From NCBI RefSeq assembly GCF_001677475.2, contig NZ_CP015229.1: a stretch of DNA of 64,000 nucleotides; one strand, written 5' to 3'. Positions 18,912-47,033 of this stretch are shown piece by piece. This DNA is from Escherichia coli. Lineage in GTDB: Bacteria > Pseudomonadota > Gammaproteobacteria > Enterobacterales > Enterobacteriaceae. The first letter of the stretch is position 1, and each line of letters begins with the position of its first letter. Below the pieces are notes generated by a model. That model ran no database searches, was not told the DNA's origin, and worked only from the letters and a program-made list of their open reading frames with translations. Made by a program: the position numbers and the translations under genes.

Positions 18912-18964
18912 AAAATTAGCTAAACACATATGGATTTTCGCATGTGTTTTATCCGGGAGGCATT

Positions 18965-20254
18965 ATGTTACTGGCAGGCGCTATCTTTGTCCTGACCATT
19001 GTATTGGTTATCTGGCAGCCGAAAGGTTTAGGCATCGGCTGGAGTGCAACGCTCGGCGCAGTACTGGCGTTAGTTACGGGCGTGGTACATCCGGGTGATA
19101 TTCCGGTGGTGTGGAATATCGTCTGGAACGCGACGGCGGCGTTTATTGCCGTTATTATCATCAGCCTGCTGCTGGATGAGTCCGGCTTTTTTGAATGGGC
19201 AGCGCTGCACGTCTCACGCTGGGGCAATGGACGCGGTCGCTTGCTGTTCACCTGGATTGTCCTGCTCGGTGCTGCCGTTGCAGCTCTGTTTGCCAATGAT
19301 GGTGCGGCGCTGATTTTAACGCCAATTGTCATCGCCATGCTGCTGGCTTTAGGGTTCAGTAAAGGCACGACGCTGGCGTTCGTGATGGCGGCCGGATTCA
19401 TTGCCGATACCGCCAGCCTGCCGCTTATTGTCTCCAACCTGGTGAATATCGTTTCCGCAGATTTCTTTGGCCTCGGCTTTCGCGAATACGCATCGGTGAT
19501 GGTGCCGGTGGATATCGCCGCGATTGTTGCCACGCTGGTGATGTTGCATCTCTATTTCCGCAAAGATATTCCGCAGAACTACGACATGGCGCTGCTGAAA
19601 TCTCCCGCAGAAGCGATTAAAGATCCTGCTACGTTCAAAACTGGCTGGGTTGTTTTACTGCTTCTGCTGGTGGGATTTTTCGTCCTGGAACCGCTCGGCA
19701 TTCCGGTCAGCGCCATTGCGGCAGTGGGCGCGTTGATATTATTTGTCGTCGCTAAACGCGGTCATGCGATTAATACGGGTAAGGTGCTACGCGGTGCACC
19801 CTGGCAGATTGTCATCTTCTCGCTCGGCATGTATCTGGTGGTTTATGGCCTGCGCAATGCCGGGTTAACGGAATATCTTTCTGGCGTACTCAACGTGCTG
19901 GCGGATAACGGCCTGTGGGCCGCGACGCTCGGCACCGGATTCCTCACCGCCTTCCTCTCTTCTATTATGAACAATATGCCGACGGTACTGGTTGGCGCGT
20001 TGTCCATTGATGGCAGCACGGCATCTGGCGTTATCAAAGAAGCGATGGTTTATGCCAACGTGATTGGCTGCGATTTGGGGCCGAAAATCACCCCAATTGG
20101 TAGCCTGGCTACGCTACTCTGGCTGCACGTTCTTTCGCAGAAGAATATGACTATCAGCTGGGGATATTACTTCCGTACAGGGATTATCATGACCCTGCCT
20201 GTGCTGTTTGTGACGCTGACTGCGCTGGCGCTACGTCTCTCTTTCACTTTGTAA
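18965..20254 (+). CDS. arsB: Arsenite efflux pump ArsB
   Basis: 429 aa from ATG ([11 protein letters not shown]...) with GGGAGG RBS; the ORF-track start at 18944 is a GTG. Confidence 0.95.
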
Positions 20255-20266
20255 TGAGATATTGAT

Positions 20267-20692
20267 ATGAGCAACATTACCATTTATCACAACCCGGCCT
20301 GCGGCACGTCGCGTAACACGCTGGAGATGATCCGCAACAGCGGCACAGAACCGACCATTGTCTATTATCTGGAAACCCCACCGACGCGTGATGAACTGGT
20401 CAAACTTATTGCCGATATGGGGATTTCCGTACGCGCGCTGCTGCGTAAAAACGTCGAGCCGTATGAGGAACTGGGCCTTGCAGAAGATAAATTTACTGAC
20501 GATCGGTTAATCGACTTTATGCTGCAACATCCTATCCTGATTAACCGTCCGATTGTGGTGACGCCGCTGGGAACTCGCCTGTGCCGCCCCTCGGAAGTGG
20601 TGCTGGAAATTCTGCCAGATGCGCAAAAAGGCGCGTTCACCAAGGAAGATGGCGAGAAAGTGGTTGATGAGGCGGGTAATCGCCTGAAATAG
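20267..20692 (+). CDS. arsC: Arsenate reductase ArsC (glutaredoxin-coupled)
   Basis: 141 aa; MSNITIYHNPACGTSRN with catalytic Cys. Confidence 0.95.
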   Translation: MSNITIYHNPACGTSRNTLEMIRNSGTEPTIVYYLETPPTRDELVKLIADMGISVRALLRKNVEPYEELGLAEDKFTDDRLIDFMLQHPILINRPIVVTPLGTRLCRPSEVVLEILPDAQKGAFTKEDGEKVVDEAGNRLK

Positions 20693-20712
20693 CTAAAGGG
20701 GGATATGCCCCC

Positions 20713-21033
20713 TTATTTGTTCTCCGCGGCTCCTTCGCCATTTGTTTTGCTATTTACGCAGCACTCCTCGCGTAAGAATTCAATTATCGCTTCCAGCATT
20801 GCGTATTGCGAAACACACATCAGCGTCCGACTCTCACGGTTTTGTTTGACCAGTCCTACCGATACCAGTGCTGATATATGGTGGCTGAGTGTGGAGCCAG
20901 GTATCCCAAGCTGCTTTTGCAACTCACCGACCGGCAACCCTTGTTCCCCAGCTTTGACAAGATGTTTAAATATGAACAAACGGGTCGGGTGACCTAGCTC
21001 TTTCAGCGCTTTAGCAACTTCTTCCAACTGCAT
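20713..21033 (-). CDS. ArsR/SmtB-family metalloregulator (second copy, non-K-12)
   Basis: 106 aa; winged-HTH core (LGHPTRLFIFKHL...PGSTLSHHISALVSVGLV); C-terminal vicinal Cys pair (REECCVN) rather than the ELCVC site. Confidence 0.8.
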   Translation of the reverse strand: MQLEEVAKALKELGHPTRLFIFKHLVKAGEQGLPVGELQKQLGIPGSTLSHHISALVSVGLVKQNRESRTLMCVSQYAMLEAIIEFLREECCVNSKTNGEGAAENK

Positions 21034-21140
21034 ATGACACCCCCTTTGTCTGGTTGATATTTCGATAATACCAGAAATATCTTGATCTGAATTTTATTTC
21101 GATTATTCTGGAAATATAGATTTATTCACTGAGGTTACGT

Positions 21141-22142
21141 ATGAGTAGTTGGCTTGCGATGCTGCAAGATGCCGCAGAGATGTTTGTGTTTCTCGCCGTC
21201 GAGCTTTCTTTGCTGTTTATAGTGATTAGTGCCGGTGTCAGCCTGATAAGACAAAAGGTGCCAGACCATAAAATCCAGCAGATGATGGGGGCCAGAAAAG
21301 GGAGAGGCTATCTCCTGGCTGCTCTGTTGGGAGCCGTTACCCCGTTCTGTAGTTGCTCGACAATCCCCATGTTACGTGGATTGTTATCAGCGAAAGCCGG
21401 GTTTGGTCCGACTCTCACTTTTTTATTTGTTTCCCCATTACTTAATCCCATTATCGTCGGGTTAATGTGGGTGACCTTTGGCTGGAAAGTTACCTTGTTG
21501 TACGCGATTATCGCCGCCGGCGTCTCCGTACTTGCCAGTATTATCCTGGATTCTCTGGGATTTGAACGTCATATCATTGCCAGTAAAAGCTCATCAGCAA
21601 ATTGTTGTGCTCAAGCCAAAACTTCGCCGGGGACGACATATACGCCAATAAAAGTGAGTTGCTGTAGTCCAGCGGCTAAAGCCATTGAGAAACCCGTAGT
21701 TACCTGTTGCAGTACCAAAGCTGTGGTAAGTATTAATCCCATAAAACTAGCCACCAAAGATGCGTTGCAACAGTTTAAAGATGTACTGCCATATCTTTTG
21801 TTGGGGGTATTAATAGGCTCTTTTATTTATGGCTTTATTCCCTCAGAGTGGATTGCCGCTCATGCAGGGGCAGATAATCCCTTCGCCATCCCATTGAGCG
21901 CCGTTGTCGGTATTCCGCTGTATATCCGGGCAGAGGCGGTTATCCCTCTGGCATCTGTTCTGATGACAAAAGGAATGGGTCTGGGAGCATTAATGGCATT
22001 AATCATCGGCAGTGCCGGAGCAAGCCTGACGGAAGTGATATTACTTAAATCAATGTTCAGAATGCCGATGATAGCTGCATTCCTGACGGTTATCTTAGGT
22101 ATGGCTATCTTGATGGGCTATTTGACTCAAATGCTATTTTAA
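21141..22142 (+). CDS. arsP: ArsP-like permease (putative organoarsenical efflux; DUF318 family)
   Basis: 333 aa polytopic membrane protein with TPFCSCSTIP motif (the ArsP signature as recalled); central loop with three Cys-Cys dyads. Confidence 0.65.
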   Translation: MSSWLAMLQDAAEMFVFLAVELSLLFIVISAGVSLIRQKVPDHKIQQMMGARKGRGYLLAALLGAVTPFCSCSTIPMLRGLLSAKAGFGPTLTFLFVSPLLNPIIVGLMWVTFGWKVTLLYAIIAAGVSVLASIILDSLGFERHIIASKSSSANCCAQAKTSPGTTYTPIKVSCCSPAAKAIEKPVVTCCSTKAVVSINPIKLATKDALQQFKDVLPYLLLGVLIGSFIYGFIPSEWIAAHAGADNPFAIPLSAVVGIPLYIRAEAVIPLASVLMTKGMGLGALMALIIGSAGASLTEVILLKSMFRMPMIAAFLTVILGMAILMGYLTQMLF

Positions 22143-22720
22143 ATAGATGCCAGCAGTAAACTATAAGGAGCATTGTGAGTGCCTTATCCTTCTGAGTAGA
22201 AAATCATAGATAGGATAATCCTTAAAAAGCACAAATAACTTAACTAATGCTTTGAGAATGATGACGGATCCATCAGTAAGTCATCAATCGACAATCACCA
22301 CGCAATCATGCTTCTCTTACATTTTATCGGAGAAGCAATGTCTCTTTGTCTCAGTGCTATCCCCCCTTTTAAAGGGCAGATTTCAGTCGCCAATACAACA
22401 CATTTTTAAATACACTTTAACCTGGTTCATTATTACACATCTAAAACATCACAAAAATATCACTTTACACACTATCGGAGAACATCATAACTTTTTAAAA
22501 TGAGCGCTTTTTGATAGTTATTAACGTATTCTTTTACGATACTATCACTGCCCTTTTTTATACACAAATATTACCGGGTGGAGATAAAAGGGAAGTCAAA
22601 GGTAATTATATCAGGAAGATATGACGCATTATATTTATTGTGTGTAGAAGAAAATCCATTCCTGTTCTAATTATCCAATTTAAAAATCCTAGCATAAACA
22701 GATGATGAATAAGGAATGTT

Positions 22721-23944
22721 ATGTCAATTGACTTTACCCCAGGTATAATAAATATTTATCACGGCGATATTTATAACTGCACAACAAATACCGATAATGC
22801 TAAAACGCCAGACACACCGAAGTGGCCTTGCGATAATTGGGAAGAACAACAACCCATTAATTCCACATTCTCTGGAGAAGGATATACCTCTGATCAATAT
22901 GATTTAGCGCAACACCAACTTCAACAAATTTATGCGTGCCGCACGAACACCACATATACAAATGCAGACTACTCCAAAGTTGTGGCTCAACTTGTAAGTC
23001 TTATTACTAACATTGAAACGATAAGTTCGACACCACTTACGCGGCAGGCACAGGGACTACTTAATCAAATTAATAACATTAGATACGAAAAGAACAAAAG
23101 TGCTGAATGTCGAATCATTGTTGTCGCTAATCCTAAACCCGACAAGGCAATCATAACTAAAATTAGCGTAGAAGAGGGAATCCCCATAACATTCAGTGTC
23201 CAAACCATGTTTTCAGATACTAATTTTATTGCTGAACAACGAGCTGACTTACCAACTAATATAAAAGATATTCAAAGCCTGTATCAAAAAATGACGAAGT
23301 TATATATTGCGCACAGTGAAAATAAAAACAGGATGAAAGTCTTTGCCGGAACCAACTTTATTGATTTCAATATGACAGGACAGAACCTGTCCGGGTTCGT
23401 TCTAACCTTGTCAAGGTTTTATTTCGAAGATCTACTTAATATAAATTTCACTGACGCAAATTTAGGTGACACTATTTTTTCACATAAAGAACACCCTACC
23501 CCCAAATTATATAAAGATGGACAATATCTTGACAAACAAATCGAAGGTTTATTTTCAACATTATTAACCATTAATGACAACTTTTTACGAGCAAAAGCGG
23601 AAATTGCTTCGACAATAATTAAATTTTTAGAGACCAGGATAACCAATCTTTCATACAACGACATATTAAAATATCAGCAAGAATTCAAAAAAGAATGTTA
23701 TAAGCAAGTTAAAGCCTTTACGACACTCTCTCGATACAATAAAATTCAAACATGGGCAGAAATGTCTGAATATCAATTCGAAGTATTTCAATACGAGACG
23801 CTTAACCCAAAAAAAATGTCACACACGCCTTATTTAAAGAGGCCACTTCCTAATGAAAAAGATATAAATTATGGGGTGGAAATAGAAATACCATCTGGCA
23901 AAAGAATTCGCTTATCAAATCATTATCAGAATATAATACCATAA
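22721..23944 (+). CDS. yhiS: YhiS-like protein, intact (407 aa), function unknown
   Basis: AT-rich ORF with AAGGA RBS at the K-12 yhiS position; no IS interruption. Confidence 0.7.
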
Positions 23945-24190
23945 TATTGATTATTAGCACTTTATAATCATTGAATAAAAATAGATTTTATGTAATTTTA
24001 AAACAAAGGGTTATATTATGGGGCGATGGATACTCATGCCACGCCCCAAAATAACGGAATTGAACTGAATCGAAGGGATATAAACATCAGACAGGTTTAC
24101 GTTACTATCAGGCATATCGCCTCAGAATCAGATGAAAACTATAAAGAAATATCTATTATGGCTTTAATATTTGTTGATAAGGATAGTAAC

Positions 24191-24757
24191 ATGAACATGA
24201 CAAAAGGTGCACTCATACTCAGCCTTTCATTTTTGCTTGCCGCATGTAGTTCAATTCCGCAAAATATCAAAGGCAATAACCAACCTGATATTCAAAAAAG
24301 TTTTGTTGCTGTTCATAACCAGCCGGGGTTATATGTTGGTCAACAAGCGCGCTTTGGTGGGAAGGTTATCAACGTTATCAATGGCAAAACGGATACGTTG
24401 TTAGAAATCGCTGTATTACCGTTGGATAGCTATGCGAAGCCTGATATTGAAGCCAACTATCAGGGCCGACTGCTCGCCAGACAAAGCGGCTTCCTTGATC
24501 CAGTGAACTATCGTAATCACTTTGTTACCATCCTCGGTACCATTCAGGGTGAACAACCAGGCTTTATCAATAAAGTCCCGTATAACTTCCTGGAAGTGAA
24601 TATGCAGGGCATCCAGGTGTGGCATTTGAGAGAAGTGGTTAATACCACCTATAACCTGTGGGATTACGGCTATGGTGCATTCTGGCCGGAACCGGGCTGG
24701 GGTGCGCCTTACTACACCAACGCGGTGAGTCAGGTAACACCTGAGCTGGTCAAATAA
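24191..24757 (+). CDS. slp: Starvation-inducible outer-membrane lipoprotein Slp
   Basis: 188 aa from MNMTKGALILSLSFLLAACSS (lipobox LAAC). Confidence 0.9.
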   Translation: MNMTKGALILSLSFLLAACSSIPQNIKGNNQPDIQKSFVAVHNQPGLYVGQQARFGGKVINVINGKTDTLLEIAVLPLDSYAKPDIEANYQGRLLARQSGFLDPVNYRNHFVTILGTIQGEQPGFINKVPYNFLEVNMQGIQVWHLREVVNTTYNLWDYGYGAFWPEPGWGAPYYTNAVSQVTPELVK

Positions 24758-24768
24758 CACCACCGAAA

Positions 24769-24797
24769 GATGCAGATGCTTTCTCAGCATCTGCATC
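24769..24797 (+). terminator. Hairpin after slp
   Basis: GATGCAGATGCT-TTCTC-AGCATCTGCATC perfect inverted repeat; weak T tract. Confidence 0.4.
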
Positions 24798-24912
24798 ATG
24801 CATTACATCAAATTAATACACAGTAAGCTAACTATTATTATTATAAGCCCTGTCCTGTTAATTACCTTTGGCAATCTGATTATAAAGTTAATGTCCGCAC
24901 CAGGAGTCGGTT

Positions 24913-25443
24913 ATGTTTCTTATAATTACCAGGGATACGATGTTCTTCACCGCGATGAAAAACATTCTGAGTAAAGGTAATGTCGTTCATATACAGAACG
25001 AAGAAGAGATCGACGTAATGTTGCATCAGAATGCCTTCGTCATTATTGATACATTAATGAATAATGTATTTCATTCTAATTTTCTCACTCAAATTGAACG
25101 ATTAAAACCTGTCCATGTGATTATTTTCTCCCCCTTTAATATTAAACGCTGCCTGGGGAAAGTGCCGGTGACCTTTGTTCCGCGGACTATCACTATCATT
25201 GATTTTGTCGCACTCATCAATGGCAGTTACTGCTCTGTGCCTGAAGCGGCTGTGTCCCTTTCGCGCAAGCAACATCAGGTTCTGAGCTGCATTGCGAATC
25301 AAATGACAACGGAAGATATTCTGGAGAAACTGAAAATATCGCTAAAAACGTTCTACTGCCATAAACACAATATCATGATGATCCTCAATCTTAAGCGGAT
25401 CAATGAGTTGGTACGCCATCAGCATATTGATTATCTGGTGTGA
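24913..25443 (+). CDS. dctR: LuxR-family regulator DctR (YhiF)
   Basis: 176 aa, MFLIITRDTMFFTAMKNIL...; C-terminal HTH. Confidence 0.9.
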   Translation: MFLIITRDTMFFTAMKNILSKGNVVHIQNEEEIDVMLHQNAFVIIDTLMNNVFHSNFLTQIERLKPVHVIIFSPFNIKRCLGKVPVTFVPRTITIIDFVALINGSYCSVPEAAVSLSRKQHQVLSCIANQMTTEDILEKLKISLKTFYCHKHNIMMILNLKRINELVRHQHIDYLV

Positions 25444-25503
25444 ACGATTGATCAATATAAAGAGGCCCAGCAATAAATAGCCAGACCTCCCGTTAATTAT
25501 ACG

Positions 25504-26532
25504 TTATGCAGTAACGCCTTCCGGTATCAGCGAAGCAATTTGCTTACGCCATTGCGCTTGCTCCTGTTCGCCTTCTGTACGTTGACCATAAAGTTGCGCT
25601 ATCTGCGTACCATCATGGGCAAACAATTCCAGACTGGTTACGTAGCCATCGCTGGTCGGTTTACGGGTAACCCAGGCTTCAGCAATGCTCTCTTCTAATA
25701 GATGAAGAGTAAACGTCGGGTTGAAAATATTCAGCCAACCTTTCATTGGCACCACTTTTTCTACCACACCCGTGAAAATCTGTACGCAGCCACGGTTGCC
25801 AACAAACACCATGATTTCATTGCCATCCTGCTGTGCAGATTCCAGAATCTGCGCCAGCGCACTACCAGATACTTTGCAGGCCAAATCGTCTGCCACCAGA
25901 TTGAACGCCTGTTGGCGCGTCAGATTGTGGCGCTTTAGCAACGTAAAAAACTGATGAACGTCGGTCATCGCCCGCCACTCTTGCTCGACCACAGTGGCAT
26001 CGGCTCGCGTTTGAACAACTGGCGCATCAACGGCTTTTAACTCAAGCGGCGTATTCTCATCGGTGATAAACCGTGCCAGAAGCTCATTCCATGCCGCCAT
26101 ATCGGTATTGTCGGTAGCATAAACTTTCAGTAATGCATCGCCCTGATGATCAAAGAACTGAATACTCTGACGTTCACCGCGAGCCGTGTTTTCTTTTATA
26201 TGGAAAACACTGGCCCACTGATTCAGAAACAGTCGCAAATCCAGCGCGCGCGGGTTGAGTATTAATCCGGCATGACCGTTCAAATGCTGGTTTGTGAACG
26301 AGCCAACTTGCTCATGGACTGCATATTCATTACGACAAATACATTTGGTTTCACCAACGCTTTCCAGCGCCGCCAGAATTTCACGGATATCGCCGCGCAT
26401 CCGCCACGCATCGTGCGTGACGCGTGCAAATGCCAGTTCTGCTTCGCTAATATTCATTAAACCTGCGATGTCACGCGCGTACTTTCCGGGATTTTGTTCT
26501 TTTAACTCAAGCCAGCGTGTGTAGTGGTTCAT
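25504..26532 (-). CDS. chuS: Haem-degrading/utilisation protein ChuS (HemS family)
   Basis: 342 aa, MNHYTRWLELKEQNPGKYARDIAGL... Confidence 0.9.
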   Translation of the reverse strand: MNHYTRWLELKEQNPGKYARDIAGLMNISEAELAFARVTHDAWRMRGDIREILAALESVGETKCICRNEYAVHEQVGSFTNQHLNGHAGLILNPRALDLRLFLNQWASVFHIKENTARGERQSIQFFDHQGDALLKVYATDNTDMAAWNELLARFITDENTPLELKAVDAPVVQTRADATVVEQEWRAMTDVHQFFTLLKRHNLTRQQAFNLVADDLACKVSGSALAQILESAQQDGNEIMVFVGNRGCVQIFTGVVEKVVPMKGWLNIFNPTFTLHLLEESIAEAWVTRKPTSDGYVTSLELFAHDGTQIAQLYGQRTEGEQEQAQWRKQIASLIPEGVTA

Positions 26533-26580
26533 TGTCTCTCTTCCTTCCAGATAAATGCCCCGAAATATCGGGGCAGATGA

Positions 26581-28563
26581 TTACCATTGATAACTCACGA
26601 AAATTTTTCCATTACGACCATCCTGTGGGATGCCTTGTGGCGACCAGTACTCTTTGTCGAAAGCGTTACCCAACACTAAAGTAGTGGTCATACCTTTGAG
26701 CGCCTGTTGTCCTTGATAACTGACGTAGAAATCATTCACGCCATAGCCTGGTTGTTTGCTGTAACTGCTGCTGATATGTGTTGAGCGATCGGCAAACGTA
26801 CCAACCCACCCAACAGAGAAGCCACTGTGAGCGATCGGAATATTCAGGGTGCTGGTAACGGTATCCGGGTTAATACTGGAGATATATTCGCCGGTATCGG
26901 TGTCTTTGCCGCGGGTACGGTTATAGGCCACATCAAGGCTAAACAGATCAGTGGTATATTTCGTCATCACATCCCAGCCCCAGATTTTGGCGTTCGGGAC
27001 GTTATACGACATAGTTGTCGCCGCCGCGAAATCGACGGTCGTGGAGATGTAATCCTTCGCTTTGGTATCAAAGTAGCTGGCTTTAAATTCCAGAGCATCA
27101 TTGGACAACATCAGATCATCAAAACGCAGCCCAAAACCGTACTCCTGAGTTTCGTTAGTTTCCGGACGTAAGTTCGGGTTTGGCACCCAATAGTTGGTAT
27201 AGAAGCGACCAATCGAGAAGTGCTTAGAATCGTTATACATTTCGCCCATCGTCGGGGCGCGGAATGCCTGGGCATATGAGCCAAATAACATCAGCCAGTT
27301 AGTCGGGTTGATAGTCATCCCCGCGCGAGATGACCATTTGTCGGCATCAACATCTTTGTAGCCGTCGCTGCTACCGCGATAACTGTCATAGCGGGTTCCG
27401 CCAAGCAGGGTAATCGGCAGATCGCGTAAGGTGATCTCATCCTGTAGCCAGCCGGAGCTAAAATCGATTTTTGCTTGCGGGAAGCCTGTCGTCGCGCCGC
27501 CCGGATGTTGTTCCTGACGATAATACTCACCGCCATATGTCAGTAAGTGAGAAGCGAAACTGTCGGCAAATAGAGTGGAACGGTTCTCCAGCCTGGCTCC
27601 TTTTGTTATCTGTTCACGATACTCGCCGGAACTCCCCGTGTTTTGCGCATTAATACGGACTTCCGACCAATAAATTTTTGCATCTGCATTTAACCAGTCG
27701 TTGCTCTGCGGGGCGAGTTTATAAGAAAGCTGCGCATCGCGTTGAATTGTTGAACGATCAACCATCGGATTGCTGCTTTCAGAAGCTTCAACGGTCTGCG
27801 GATTTTTTGGTTCACGCGCGTCGTTGTTGTAGTAACGCACTAAACCGCTCAGAGACTGGGCTGAATCAATTTGCCAGGTCCCCTTCGCCAGCATGTTATT
27901 AATGGACTCGTCATTCGGCGCGGTTTCACCATTGCTCTGGCGTAAATCACCCCGATCGCGACTGGACCAGGCCACAATACCATCCAGATTTTCAGTTCGC
28001 CCAAACGCGCTCGCGCCTAATCCCAGGCTATGGTCCCCCGTGCCGCCAGTACCAAAGACACGAAAACCACTGCTTTGTCCTTCCTGCAATAAATCTTTTG
28101 CATCGACCGTATCGTAGGAGATCACTCCACCCAGCGCGCCACTGCCATACAGTAATGCTGAAGGTCCACGAACAATCTCAACACGCTTGATCAGCGCCGG
28201 ATCGAGAAAAGTGCCATTCAGGTGTCCGGTATCCGTTCCCTGACGAACACCATCGACAAGAACCAGCACGCCGCGATGATCATAGCCACGCATATTTACA
28301 TCCTGACCGTTGGTTCGTCCGGTACCATCCAGAGTAATTCCAGGAACATGACGCAGCAGATCGGAGGCTGAAGTAGCCGTTTGATTTTCAGGAGCGGAAG
28401 TGTCGATGACGCTGACCATCATAGGCGCTTCGAAGGAACTACGGGCATTCCCCGTTGCCGTAACGGTTATGGTTTCAGTAGCAAAAGCAAACGTTGGCAA
28501 GGTGGCAGAAACAGCCAAAGCCAACAAACTCAAACGCAACGAGGTAAATTGCGGACGTGACAT
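26581..28563 (-). CDS. chuA: TonB-dependent outer-membrane haem receptor ChuA
   Basis: 660 aa; signal peptide, TonB box ETITVTA, C-terminal aromatic residue typical of a beta-barrel. Confidence 0.9.
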   Translation of the reverse strand: MSRPQFTSLRLSLLALAVSATLPTFAFATETITVTATGNARSSFEAPMMVSVIDTSAPENQTATSASDLLRHVPGITLDGTGRTNGQDVNMRGYDHRGVLVLVDGVRQGTDTGHLNGTFLDPALIKRVEIVRGPSALLYGSGALGGVISYDTVDAKDLLQEGQSSGFRVFGTGGTGDHSLGLGASAFGRTENLDGIVAWSSRDRGDLRQSNGETAPNDESINNMLAKGTWQIDSAQSLSGLVRYYNNDAREPKNPQTVEASESSNPMVDRSTIQRDAQLSYKLAPQSNDWLNADAKIYWSEVRINAQNTGSSGEYREQITKGARLENRSTLFADSFASHLLTYGGEYYRQEQHPGGATTGFPQAKIDFSSGWLQDEITLRDLPITLLGGTRYDSYRGSSDGYKDVDADKWSSRAGMTINPTNWLMLFGSYAQAFRAPTMGEMYNDSKHFSIGRFYTNYWVPNPNLRPETNETQEYGFGLRFDDLMLSNDALEFKASYFDTKAKDYISTTVDFAAATTMSYNVPNAKIWGWDVMTKYTTDLFSLDVAYNRTRGKDTDTGEYISSINPDTVTSTLNIPIAHSGFSVGWVGTFADRSTHISSSYSKQPGYGVNDFYVSYQGQQALKGMTTTLVLGNAFDKEYWSPQGIPQDGRNGKIFVSYQW

Positions 28564-46823: not shown

Positions 46824-47033
46824 TTCGAACTCCTTAAATTTATTTGAAGGCAATAAAAAAGTAGGATTTATCCGCAATGGAAGCAAGGCATTACAGGCTT
46901 AATTTAAATAACAAAATCCTAAGCAGAAAAACGACTTTTTATAATATAAACATTTAACATGATAATATTAAAAACAGACTTTATTATCGCAATAAAAATC
47001 ACCCGAACATTCCTGTTCGGGCGATTAAATTAA

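Follow-up and report, generated by a model that had tools for sequence, protein, structure and literature searches.

The open reading frame between arsC and slp in the Escherichia coli DNA analyzed here (a stretch of 64,000 nucleotides, referred to below as the window) is an intact allele of yhiS, a gene that is already catalogued and uncharacterised. We consider it probable (roughly 60%) that this Escherichia-restricted gene is weakly constrained and decaying, and that its product would act as a dispensable, normally silenced binding protein. The position and integrity of the frame, a short repeat segment in the protein, and the balance between coding constraint and loss among alleles are the observations that bear on this reading.

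An intact allele of yhiS at the arsC-slp junction

An earlier note had taken the frame to be an intact yhiS at the place where E. coli K-12 carries yhiS fragments split by IS5, and position, sequence identity and the frame itself all agree with that identification. The K-12 gene (b3504, UniProt P37635) is by annotation an IS5-interrupted pseudogene which shares the arsC-slp locus and the 407-codon frame with the window. Its 5' fragment is 97.2% identical at the nucleotide level to the window's copy over nucleotides 1-746 of the ORF, and removal of IS5 in silico restores a 407-amino acid ORF. The window's copy aligns without gaps to other intact 407-amino acid alleles. The same protein is recorded on at least 24 independent contigs [for example ANO91444.1, on a 5.5-Mb contig], and the intact frame is therefore not a sequencing accident. 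The start originally proposed for the gene (22150) takes in 571 bp of non-coding spacer upstream of the ATG (Table 1). The product is computed from its sequence to be a soluble protein of 47 kDa with a pI of 6.4 that lacks a signal peptide and membrane segments.

The gene order arsC-yhiS-slp-dctR was found at every locus examined, with yhiS on the same strand as slp, and the arsC-slp junction that holds yhiS lies at the left-hand boundary of the acid fitness island. The gene is solitary: it is flanked by spacers of 578 bp and 246 bp and has no conserved partner gene. An ArsR-like regulator and an ArsP permease adjoin yhiS in the window, and both are deleted in K-12. From about position 22404 onwards, the upstream spacer is common to K-12-type, B2 and non-coli Escherichia loci. 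A promoter and terminator scan of the region gave counts at chance level, promoter-like sites included, and the sole match in an Rfam scan of positions 20600-25600 was a sub-threshold eukaryotic element.

Table 1. Features of the yhiS region, in window coordinates
Feature	Position	Strand	Basis or remark
Upstream spacer, AT-rich, 33.6% GC	22143..22720	.	Published for K-12 as a 'promoter island' bound by H-NS (PMC3661553)
Candidate sigma-70 promoter, TTGATA-18-TACGAT	22511..22540	+	Kept in all aligned alleles, including non-coli Escherichia
Nearly invariant block AAAGGTAATTATATCAGGAAGATATGACGCAT, presumed leader	22598..22629	+	Allele alignment
Shine-Dalgarno AAGGA, 5 nt before ATG	22711..22715	+	Invariant across alleles
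yhiS CDS, 407 codons + stop (ATG at 22721, stop ends at 23944)	22721..23944	+	ORF call, dN/dS, ORF-retention tests
Pentapeptide-repeat-like segment, aa 206-255, ten 5-residue units	23336..23485	+	Period-5 pattern, profile searches, hhalign
TTAG, position of IS5 insertion in K-12 (ORF nt 742-745)	23462..23465	+	Comparison with K-12
T6 tract; the common allele has T7	23475..23480	+	Commonest inactivating -1 frameshift elsewhere, stop at aa 281
A6 tract; alleles of the 76%-identity group have A7	23687..23692	+	+1 frameshift in other strains, stop at aa 327
A8 tract	23811..23818	+	Frameshift giving 371-aa variants on several allele backgrounds

The impression, first gained by eye, that the gene is markedly AT-rich compared with its flanking genes was borne out by calculation. 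The GC content of the ORF is 34.7% (40, 33 and 31% at the first, second and third codon positions) versus 48.4% for the 64-kb window, and arsB and arsC have a GC content of 53-54% with about 60% at the third position. Windows of 1224 bp that are as GC-poor as yhiS make up 1.8% of the whole stretch, the GC minimum of which falls inside the yhiS ORF. The horizontal origin that had been suggested on this basis fits the composition, as well as the published foreign-gene predictions and H-NS binding at the K-12 locus (PMC3661553), but is not demonstrated: no donor or mobile element was found for yhiS and no copy occurs in phages or true plasmids. Plasmid matches obtained by tblastn were really chromosomes (4.8-4.9 Mb) filed as plasmids. 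The neighbours of the orthologue in non-coli Escherichia are unchanged, and its ORF, start codon and Shine-Dalgarno sequence are kept. Any acquisition of yhiS must therefore be old, dating from the split of that lineage or before.

A pentapeptide-repeat-like segment in a genus-restricted protein

The central part of YhiS had been described in the earlier note as resembling a pentapeptide repeat, and the in-register units, the profile searches and hhalign agree on this point. Phe, Leu or Met occupies every fifth residue ten consecutive times (208, 213 ... 253), a register that did not arise once when the protein was shuffled 20,000 times. The residue before the central position (i-1) is Asn or Asp in six of the ten units, and i-2 is Ala, Ser or Thr in four of them (consensus A(D/N)LXX). 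At least eight tandem units with a central Leu, Phe or Met were taken as characteristic of the pentapeptide family (PF00805), and YhiS has ten; at the DNA level, the ORF contains no tandem repeat. The match to the Pfam Pentapeptide model scores 11.6 bits, under the gathering cut-off of 20.2 bits, and we therefore speak of a pentapeptide-like segment within YhiS and refrain from counting the protein among the curated PF00805 members. This sub-threshold match was found in 61 of 66 yhiS alleles (best E-value 0.037), and no other family was consistently recurrent. A match to Pfam DDE_Tnp_1_3 (E = 0.028) was seen in a single one of the 66 alleles and was discarded as noise.

Searches with the family profile gave the same picture. 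The non-self matches in the PDB were the pentapeptide proteins 2f3l (E = 0.006) and 3n90, and no others. All ten distant matches that were tested from a search of 1.84 billion representatives are PF00805 proteins; they cover only profile positions ~178-330, with the repeat (204-290) at the centre. The hhalign comparison with pentapeptide proteins resulted in probabilities of 93% and 91% over 54 columns. Residues 206-255 are the sole recognisable module of YhiS, and as a quadrilateral beta-helix they would complete about 2.5 turns; this module is missed by current Pfam and NCBIfam annotation.

Rfr32 of Cyanothece (2f3l) and TL15 of Arabidopsis (3n90) combine a central Phe, Leu or Met with a preceding Asn or Asp as in six of the ten YhiS units, and one 10-residue stretch of YhiS agrees with the PF00805 family consensus. 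Classical members of the family consist mostly of repeat, whereas about 12% of YhiS is repeat, with a score below the cut-off and a fold that is predicted only; moreover, its i-2 position is often bulky (Phe, Gln, Glu, Lys), unlike the small residue of the consensus. Proteins of the Qnr/MfpA/AlbG type use a rigid pentapeptide beta-helix as a binding surface, and the mode of action proposed below for YhiS is modelled on them. These DNA mimics share the repeat type with YhiS but are almost wholly repeat, with 30-40 or more units that form DNA-sized rods, whereas YhiS combines 10 units (50 of 407 residues) with ~350 unrelated residues, and the ten units are too short for DNA mimicry of the Qnr type. 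YjbI (COG1357), PipB2, the EspX family and the N-domain of SopA/NleL resemble YhiS in being enterobacterial, AT-rich, pentapeptide-containing and often pseudogenes, but YjbI and the pentapeptide type III effectors have no sequence similarity to YhiS outside the repeat. The yjbI gene of K-12, too, is among the published H-NS-bound promoter islands (PMC3661553).

Judged by sequence clustering, the N- and C-terminal regions of YhiS are without relatives outside the genus. A single 50%-identity cluster among the 1.84 billion representatives contains every full-length relative, and the source names are E. coli, Shigella or Escherichia sp. only. Short matches that looked divergent (P0156, P0122, P0129 and others) came from poor assemblies and were fragments with frameshifts. 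A scan of genome contigs with the family alignment yielded zero confirmed loci, which probably reflects the limit of the two peptide patterns used and is not evidence of absence. YhiS had no match in NCBIfam or PHROGs, and no defence-protein match in PADLOC-DB 2.0 at E-values up to 1. AlphaFold2 models built with 13 and then 66 family sequences had a pLDDT of 36.1 and 35.5, respectively, with residues 206-255 not built as a beta-helix; this low confidence is explained by the shallowness of the family (alignment Neff 1.4). Beyond the short repeat no domain was detectable, leaving 88% of the protein without an assignable fold, and enzymatic or other activity may reside in this part. The expectation that an intact copy would offer a chance to assign a function was not borne out: the models stayed at a pLDDT of about 36 and no function was obtained. 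Such a chance is not rare either, for open copies are found in many genomes.

Coding constraint, divergence and repeated loss

yhiS is genuinely protein-coding and is subject to weak purifying selection. The dN/dS ratio is 0.28-0.59 and significantly below 1 in every comparison (Fisher p 2e-3 to 7e-15), including the closest allele pair, which has 31 differences (p = 0.002); being pairwise, these ratios cannot separate old constraint from recent neutrality. The ORF stays open across 22% DNA divergence. In a simulation of 173 or 265 random substitutions, 0.14% or 0% of the ORFs, respectively, were still open, whereas the real alleles are open.

The YhiS protein evolves 10-20 times faster than its neighbours, with a dN of 0.10-0.20 versus 0.000-0.019 for arsB, arsC, slp, dctR and chuS when the same pairs of strains are compared. 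Identity in the coding sequence is 86.0%, versus 94.2% and 97.2% in the flanking spacers. At the amino acid level, alleles are 65-96% identical across the genus and down to 76% within E. coli, a divergence within one species that is far above that of the neighbouring proteins. The allele in the window is one of the rarer ones: the best match among complete RefSeq genomes reaches 96.6% identity over the 1795-bp region, and the window's protein differs at 16 amino acids from the common phylogroup-A-type allele. Blockwise identity among alleles shows a mosaic pattern, which is consistent with intragenic recombination. Positive selection was considered and rejected, the ratio piN/piS ranging from 0.13 to 0.95 and exceeding 1 in none of the 30-residue blocks. 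Synonymous divergence is also raised (dS 0.16-0.30 within E. coli and 0.62 against non-coli Escherichia), but the excess is proportionate within and between species as in the neighbours, so that balancing selection is not indicated by this crude polymorphism-divergence comparison.

The gene has been lost independently and repeatedly across E. coli. Among 23 evenly spaced complete genomes, the 407-amino acid frame is open in 11 and disrupted in 12, and at least six different lesions are involved (homopolymer frameshifts, IS5, IS1, a nonsense codon and a deletion; tracts in Table 1). B2 strains have a truncated remnant only, and intact copies are present in small phylogroup-A-like genomes (for example L019-L022). 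For these counts the ORFs were re-derived from the DNA, and PGAP 'frameshifted' flags were distrusted. RefSeq/PGAP marks some open 407-amino acid alleles as 'frameshifted', a label that appears to be caused by a truncated 371-amino acid reference. Automated pseudogene counts at this locus are therefore unreliable.

Both constraint and loss bear on the reading that yhiS is a relic, once useful and now neutral everywhere, of which the intact copies mark the lineages not yet hit. The independent lesions in 12 of the 23 genomes, a dN/dS that is high for E. coli and the binding of H-NS and StpA to the K-12 locus (PMC3661553; bioRxiv 10.64898/2026.02.10.705075) are in line with it, as is the lack of a phenotype of the Keio yhiS deletion and the ASKA clone in the single assay found, a chlorhexidine MIC (PMC8170033). 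A dN/dS significantly below 1 even for the closest pair, and an ORF, start codon and Shine-Dalgarno sequence that are kept in non-coli Escherichia at a dS of 0.62, argue against it. We give this reading appreciable but minority weight.

Regulation and possible roles of YhiS

YhiS could also be an Escherichia-specific factor in phage, plasmid or host interactions, with a helix that would mimic DNA or dock a foreign protein and with deeply diverse mosaic alleles and recurrent homopolymer on/off states as signs of fluctuating selection instead of simple decay, which we hold to be rather unlikely. We are more doubtful that it is a conflict protein such as a one-gene defence against phages or plasmids, in which the helix would serve as DNA mimic or sensor and an arms race would account for the allele diversity. 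Fast protein evolution, mosaic alleles, AT-richness, restriction to one lineage and frequent loss would suit such a role. In addition, one distant pentapeptide match (P0168) is fused to a HEPN domain, indicating that pentapeptide modules do occur in defence-like architectures. However, neither PADLOC nor PHROGs contains a match, piN/piS stays below 1 in all blocks, the dS ratios are like those of the neighbours with no sign of balancing selection, and the locus is fixed and without defence-island neighbours.

Pentapeptide-containing effectors are known in Salmonella and EHEC, and YhiS might be a type III secretion substrate of the PipB2/EspX kind that is decaying along with a degenerate ETT2. 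It has no Sec signal, its N-terminus is rich in Ser, Thr, Asn and Ile, the gene is AT-rich and frequently a pseudogene, and the B2 strains, which lack ETT2, keep the truncated remnant only. We nevertheless regard this as very unlikely, given that no effector similarity beyond the generic repeat was found among the 1.84 billion representatives and the PDB, that YhiS has no WEX5F-type motif, that the small phylogroup-A-like genomes have intact alleles and that the link with ETT2 is anecdotal.

The literature on the regulation of yhiS concerns K-12, a strain in which the gene is disrupted. There, H-NS-bound promoter islands lie on both sides of yhiS (PMC3661553) and the locus has a high-affinity StpA/H-NS site (bioRxiv 10.64898/2026.02.10.705075). 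A YdeO-binding site is located between yhiS and slp; over-expression of YdeO left yhiS unaffected and raised slp-dctR more than 3-fold (PMC4222967), a result that is weak because the K-12 gene is interrupted by IS5. A GAD-box core, TAGGATTTT (22683-22691), lies 30 bp upstream of the ATG in the window; it is absent from every other allele and was put down to chance, and the one other place where this core occurs is the true gadA GAD box. That yhiS works as part of the acid fitness island, under joint control with slp-dctR and aiding acid resistance, is most improbable, for its place directly beside slp on the same strand, its island-like low GC content and the YdeO site in the yhiS-slp interval are set against the missing YdeO response of the disrupted K-12 gene, a GAD-box core that is not conserved, and the acid resistance of K-12 and B2 strains without an intact yhiS.

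In the reading we prefer, that of a weakly constrained and decaying gene, YhiS would be a non-enzymatic and dispensable binding protein. By analogy with the general roles of pentapeptide beta-helices, its short helix would provide a rigid surface for a protein partner. Expression would take place only once silencing by H-NS is lifted, and the usefulness of the protein would vary from niche to niche, which would account for the loss of the gene from many lineages; losses as frequent as these fit the absence of a present function just as well.

The understanding of any pathway is left unchanged by this result. K-12 is one IS5 element away from an open yhiS frame, and open alleles are common. yhiS is one of many E. 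coli y-genes to which no function is assigned and has been dismissed as a pseudogene in K-12, yet it is under real, weak constraint, and it illustrates cleanly how a gene that is taxonomically restricted and bound by H-NS can stand between maintenance and loss.

The intact yhiS gene and its locus

We are highly confident that the ORF between arsC and slp is an open allele of yhiS, a known, uncharacterised gene that occurs only in Escherichia. The earlier note had described an intact 407-aa frame, and such a frame was indeed found, preceded at 5 nt by an AAGGA motif that is invariant across alleles. The span it had marked (22150-23944) takes in 571 bp of the spacer upstream of this ORF (578 bp in all) as well as the ORF itself. 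The exact protein is on record on at least 24 contigs (e.g., ANO91444.1, on a 5.5-Mb E. coli contig), so that the intact state is not a sequencing artefact, and one source record names it 'YhiS'. In a K-12-type genome the ORF is split by IS5 at TTAG (ORF nt 742-745), and joining the fragments in silico restored the 407-aa frame, which identifies the window ORF as yhiS and leaves K-12 a single IS5 short of an open gene. Of 5,426 complete E. coli genomes, 5,415 match the 1795-bp yhiS region; every match is chromosomal, and there is essentially one per genome. Among RefSeq complete genomes, the best match to the window had 96.6% identity in the yhiS region and 98.0% in arsBC; the lineage of the window itself is not in that set.

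Features of the yhiS locus in the window
Feature	Position	Strand	Remarks
arsB	18944-20254		left of yhiS
arsC	20267-20692		left of yhiS
ArsR/SmtB-like regulator gene	20713-21033	-	between arsC and yhiS
ArsP_1-family permease gene	21141-22142		between arsC and yhiS
yhiS ORF	22721-23944	+	ATG start, 407 aa; from the ORF list
slp	24191 (annotated start)-24757		right of yhiS
dctR	24913-25443		right of yhiS
chuS/chuA haem-uptake genes	25504-28563 and beyond		after dctR

Several features of the surroundings differ between lineages. The dctR gene is followed by chuS/chuA in the window and directly by yhiD in K-12, which places the window in a chu-positive E. coli lineage. The regulator and permease genes (20713-22142; junction near 22404) are missing from the K-12-type, B2 (Nissle) and non-coli Escherichia loci, K-12 carrying a REP-like element in their place. 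Because remnants of 23-62 bp of both genes are kept in these three loci, the window seems to represent the ancestral arsC-yhiS arrangement, with deletions in the other lineages. The mechanically called slp ORF encodes 243 aa (24026-24757), whereas all RefSeq annotations begin slp 165 nt later (188 aa), at the lipoprotein signal MNMTKGALIL...

In a library of 5.8 billion clusters, all 136 matches were yhiS sequences, whether full-length or partial, and came from E. coli, Shigella or unnamed Escherichia, and a library at 50% identity held one full-length yhiS cluster. The most distant orthologue (library proteins P0115/P0206; 410 aa, 65% identity), labelled 'Escherichia sp.' or 'MULTISPECIES: Escherichia', lies in the order arsRBC-yhiS-slp-dctR-chuS-chuA, the same place as in the window. 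No yhiS was found in phage records, and the only three 'plasmid' matches were rejected as chromosomes of 4.8-4.9 Mb. A family-alignment scan of one genome per species gave no confirmed locus, which we attribute to the limits of the patterns used. As far as these records go, yhiS is genus-restricted, chromosomal and fixed in position.

The ORF had also been called markedly AT-rich, and calculation bears this out: it has 34.7% GC (GC1/2/3 = 40/33/31%) vs. 48.4% for the window, and just 1.8% of 1224-bp windows are as AT-rich. The GC minimum of the window (32.9%) falls inside the ORF. The upstream spacer has 33.6% GC, and arsB and arsC have 53-54% (GC3 ~60%). The low-GC tract extends, less extreme, across slp and dctR and reappears at the acid-fitness-island genes further right. 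The horizontal origin that the earlier note read from this composition is consistent with it, but no donor is visible, and any acquisition would predate the split from the non-coli lineage; such an event would be old and is unproven.

Constraint, divergence and loss of yhiS

Compared with other open alleles, the window yhiS shows a dN/dS of 0.28-0.59, and 0.32 compared with the non-coli orthologue, with a significant excess of synonymous differences in every comparison (Fisher p 2e-3 to 7e-15). When the observed numbers of differences were placed randomly on this AT-rich ORF, the share of simulations that left it open was 2.2% for 101 changes, 0.14% for 173 and 0% for 265, whereas the real alleles at those difference counts are all open. 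On both grounds yhiS is a real protein-coding gene. Its constraint is weak, and it evolves much faster than its neighbours: for the same strain pairs, dN was 0.07-0.20 for yhiS and 0.000-0.019 for arsB, arsC, slp, dctR and chuS (dN/dS 0.00-0.11), and YhiS identity among E. coli alleles was as low as 76-77% with neighbouring proteins at 95.7-100%. In sharp contrast, the adjoining Slp does not vary (100% identity) among the four strains compared, which include the non-coli lineage. Between E. coli strains, arsC has a dS of 0.17-0.22, well above that of slp or dctR (0.02-0.10), so the left flank of yhiS is likewise unusually polymorphic.

Compared with L007, a locus from another complete E. coli genome, the CDS (86.0% identity) is more diverged than both the upstream (94.2%) and downstream (97.2%) spacers. 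Identity to L007 is 91-97% over the first 300 nt of the CDS and 79-85% over the remainder; the pattern is reversed against a second such locus, L005, and in the comparison with L019, a close allele, a single 100-nt block falls to 88%. The aligned proteins are patchy in the same way, and this suggests that old alleles have recombined within the gene. In none of the 30-residue blocks did piN/piS exceed 1 (range 0.13-0.95), and the most constrained parts are the repeat, the helix after it and the last 17 residues. For yhiS, dS is elevated in both comparisons, at 0.16-0.30 among E. coli strains and 0.62 relative to the non-coli lineage, roughly in proportion to its neighbours, and this crude within- vs. 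between-lineage comparison gave no evidence of balancing selection. Weak purifying selection with recombination is the simplest reading.

The ORF was re-derived from DNA for 23 of 40 evenly spaced genome-search rows. It was open at 407 aa in 11 and not open in 12. Eight genomes carry a -1 frameshift that leads to a stop at aa 281, located at a T7 tract which is T6 in the window (23475-23480), and one combines this frameshift with a nonsense codon at aa 104. Two have a +1 at an A7 tract (23687-23692, where the window has A6), and IS1 is also present in one of these two; one has the K-12-type IS5, and one a B2-type remnant keeping the first ~380 nt, which matches the 7 of 40 rows at ~38% coverage. 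Allowing for these rows, yhiS is open in roughly 40% of complete genomes, the sample being small and biased. An intact copy, in which the earlier note saw a chance to assign function, is thus not unusual, and no function could be assigned. Variants of 371 aa, due to slippage in an A8 tract (23811-23818), occur in the protein library in several allele backgrounds. RefSeq/PGAP flags open 407-aa ORFs as 'frameshifted' [L001 (NZ_LR778147.1) and L024 (NZ_CP053259.1), from other complete genomes; search rows H1 and H30], and the flagged CDS, which ends at nt 1116-1117, is as long as that of the 371-aa variant. This frameshift product apparently serves as the reference, and pseudogene flags at the locus are unreliable.

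A short pentapeptide-repeat segment in YhiS

The pentapeptide-like centre noted earlier holds up, with a Pfam score that stays sub-threshold. If the sequence is split into five-residue units starting at residue 206, position 3 of successive units is F, F, M, L, L, F, L, F, L and F. Such a run of ten in-register positions was not reached in any of 20,000 shuffled versions of the protein. Position 2 is occupied by N or D in six of the ten units. The Pfam Pentapeptide model scores 11.6 bits (E = 0.21; cut-off 20.2); this weak match recurs in 61 of 66 alleles, and no other family recurs consistently. A 13-allele profile matched only two chains among all PDB sequences (E up to 10), both pentapeptide proteins [Rfr32 (2f3l, E = 0.006) and TL15 (3n90)]. 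Among 1.84 billion representatives it matched, beyond yhiS and its fragments, only multi-repeat proteins (E down to 1e-8), over profile positions ~178-330 centred on the repeat at 204-290. All ten distant matches scanned were strong PF00805 proteins, named, where a name was given, 'YjbI with pentapeptide repeats' or 'pentapeptide repeat-containing protein'. With hhalign, a 66-allele profile aligned in register to two PF00805 matches (93% and 91% probability, 54 columns, 35-37% identity). No repeat was found at the DNA level. We conclude that residues 206-255 form a genuine but short pentapeptide-repeat segment, with ~2.5 predicted helical turns, below the curated Pfam threshold.

YhiS (47 kDa, pI 6.4) has no signal peptide or membrane segment (maximum 19-residue hydropathy 0.99), and outside the repeat no match was found in Pfam, NCBIfam, PHROGs, PADLOC or PDB. 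AlphaFold2 gave a mean pLDDT of 36.1 with 13 and 35.5 with 66 sequences, at an effective alignment depth of only 1.4.

Regulatory sequence and possible roles of YhiS

A candidate sigma-70-like promoter (TTGATA-18-TACGAT, 22511-22540) and a nearly invariant 32-nt block in the presumed leader (22598-22629) are conserved up to the 65%-identity non-coli locus, better than most of the coding sequence. AT-rich H-NS-bound DNA commonly contains spurious intragenic promoters; a near-consensus antisense promoter-like site (TTGTCA-18-TATAAT, 11/12) lies inside the ORF at 23506-23535 (-). The GAD-box core TAGGATTTT occurs only twice in the window, within a perfect 20-bp GAD box by gadA (46903-46922, -) and 30 bp 5' of the yhiS ATG (22683-22691, -). 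The latter is missing from all other alleles and was rejected as a probable chance occurrence.

No published work on yhiS function was found, and the reports cited here all concern K-12, where the gene is disrupted. Deletion or over-expression left the chlorhexidine MIC unchanged (PMC8170033). Both the arsC/yhiS spacer and the interval between insH11 and slp are classed as 'promoter islands'; they are H-NS-bound in ChIP studies and coincide with a predicted genomic island and with foreign-gene predictions (PMC3661553); yhiS is among the high-affinity StpA sites (bioRxiv 10.64898/2026.02.10.705075). According to these reports yhiS is bound by H-NS/StpA in K-12, and it lies outside the YdeO regulon: YdeO binds between yhiS and slp and raises slp-dctR >3-fold with yhiS unaffected (PMC4222967).

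The observation in the earlier note is confirmed and its interpretation was largely right, for a gene that was already known. The gene is AT-rich, solitary, weakly constrained, mosaic and repeatedly inactivated, and its product is a soluble protein containing a pentapeptide segment of ten units. Tentatively, YhiS may be a dispensable, usually silenced binding protein whose short predicted beta-helix would serve as the interaction surface. Alternatively, yhiS could be a functionless relic or a conflict or defence factor, or its product a PipB2/EspX-like type III effector. Membership of the acid fitness island is the least likely of these alternatives, because of the YdeO result, the non-conserved GAD-box core and the existence of acid-resistant K-12 and B2 strains without an intact gene. 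Three results deserve to be retained: the pentapeptide annotation at sub-threshold score, the exceptional divergence of YhiS within the species and the unreliability of automated pseudogene calling at the locus.
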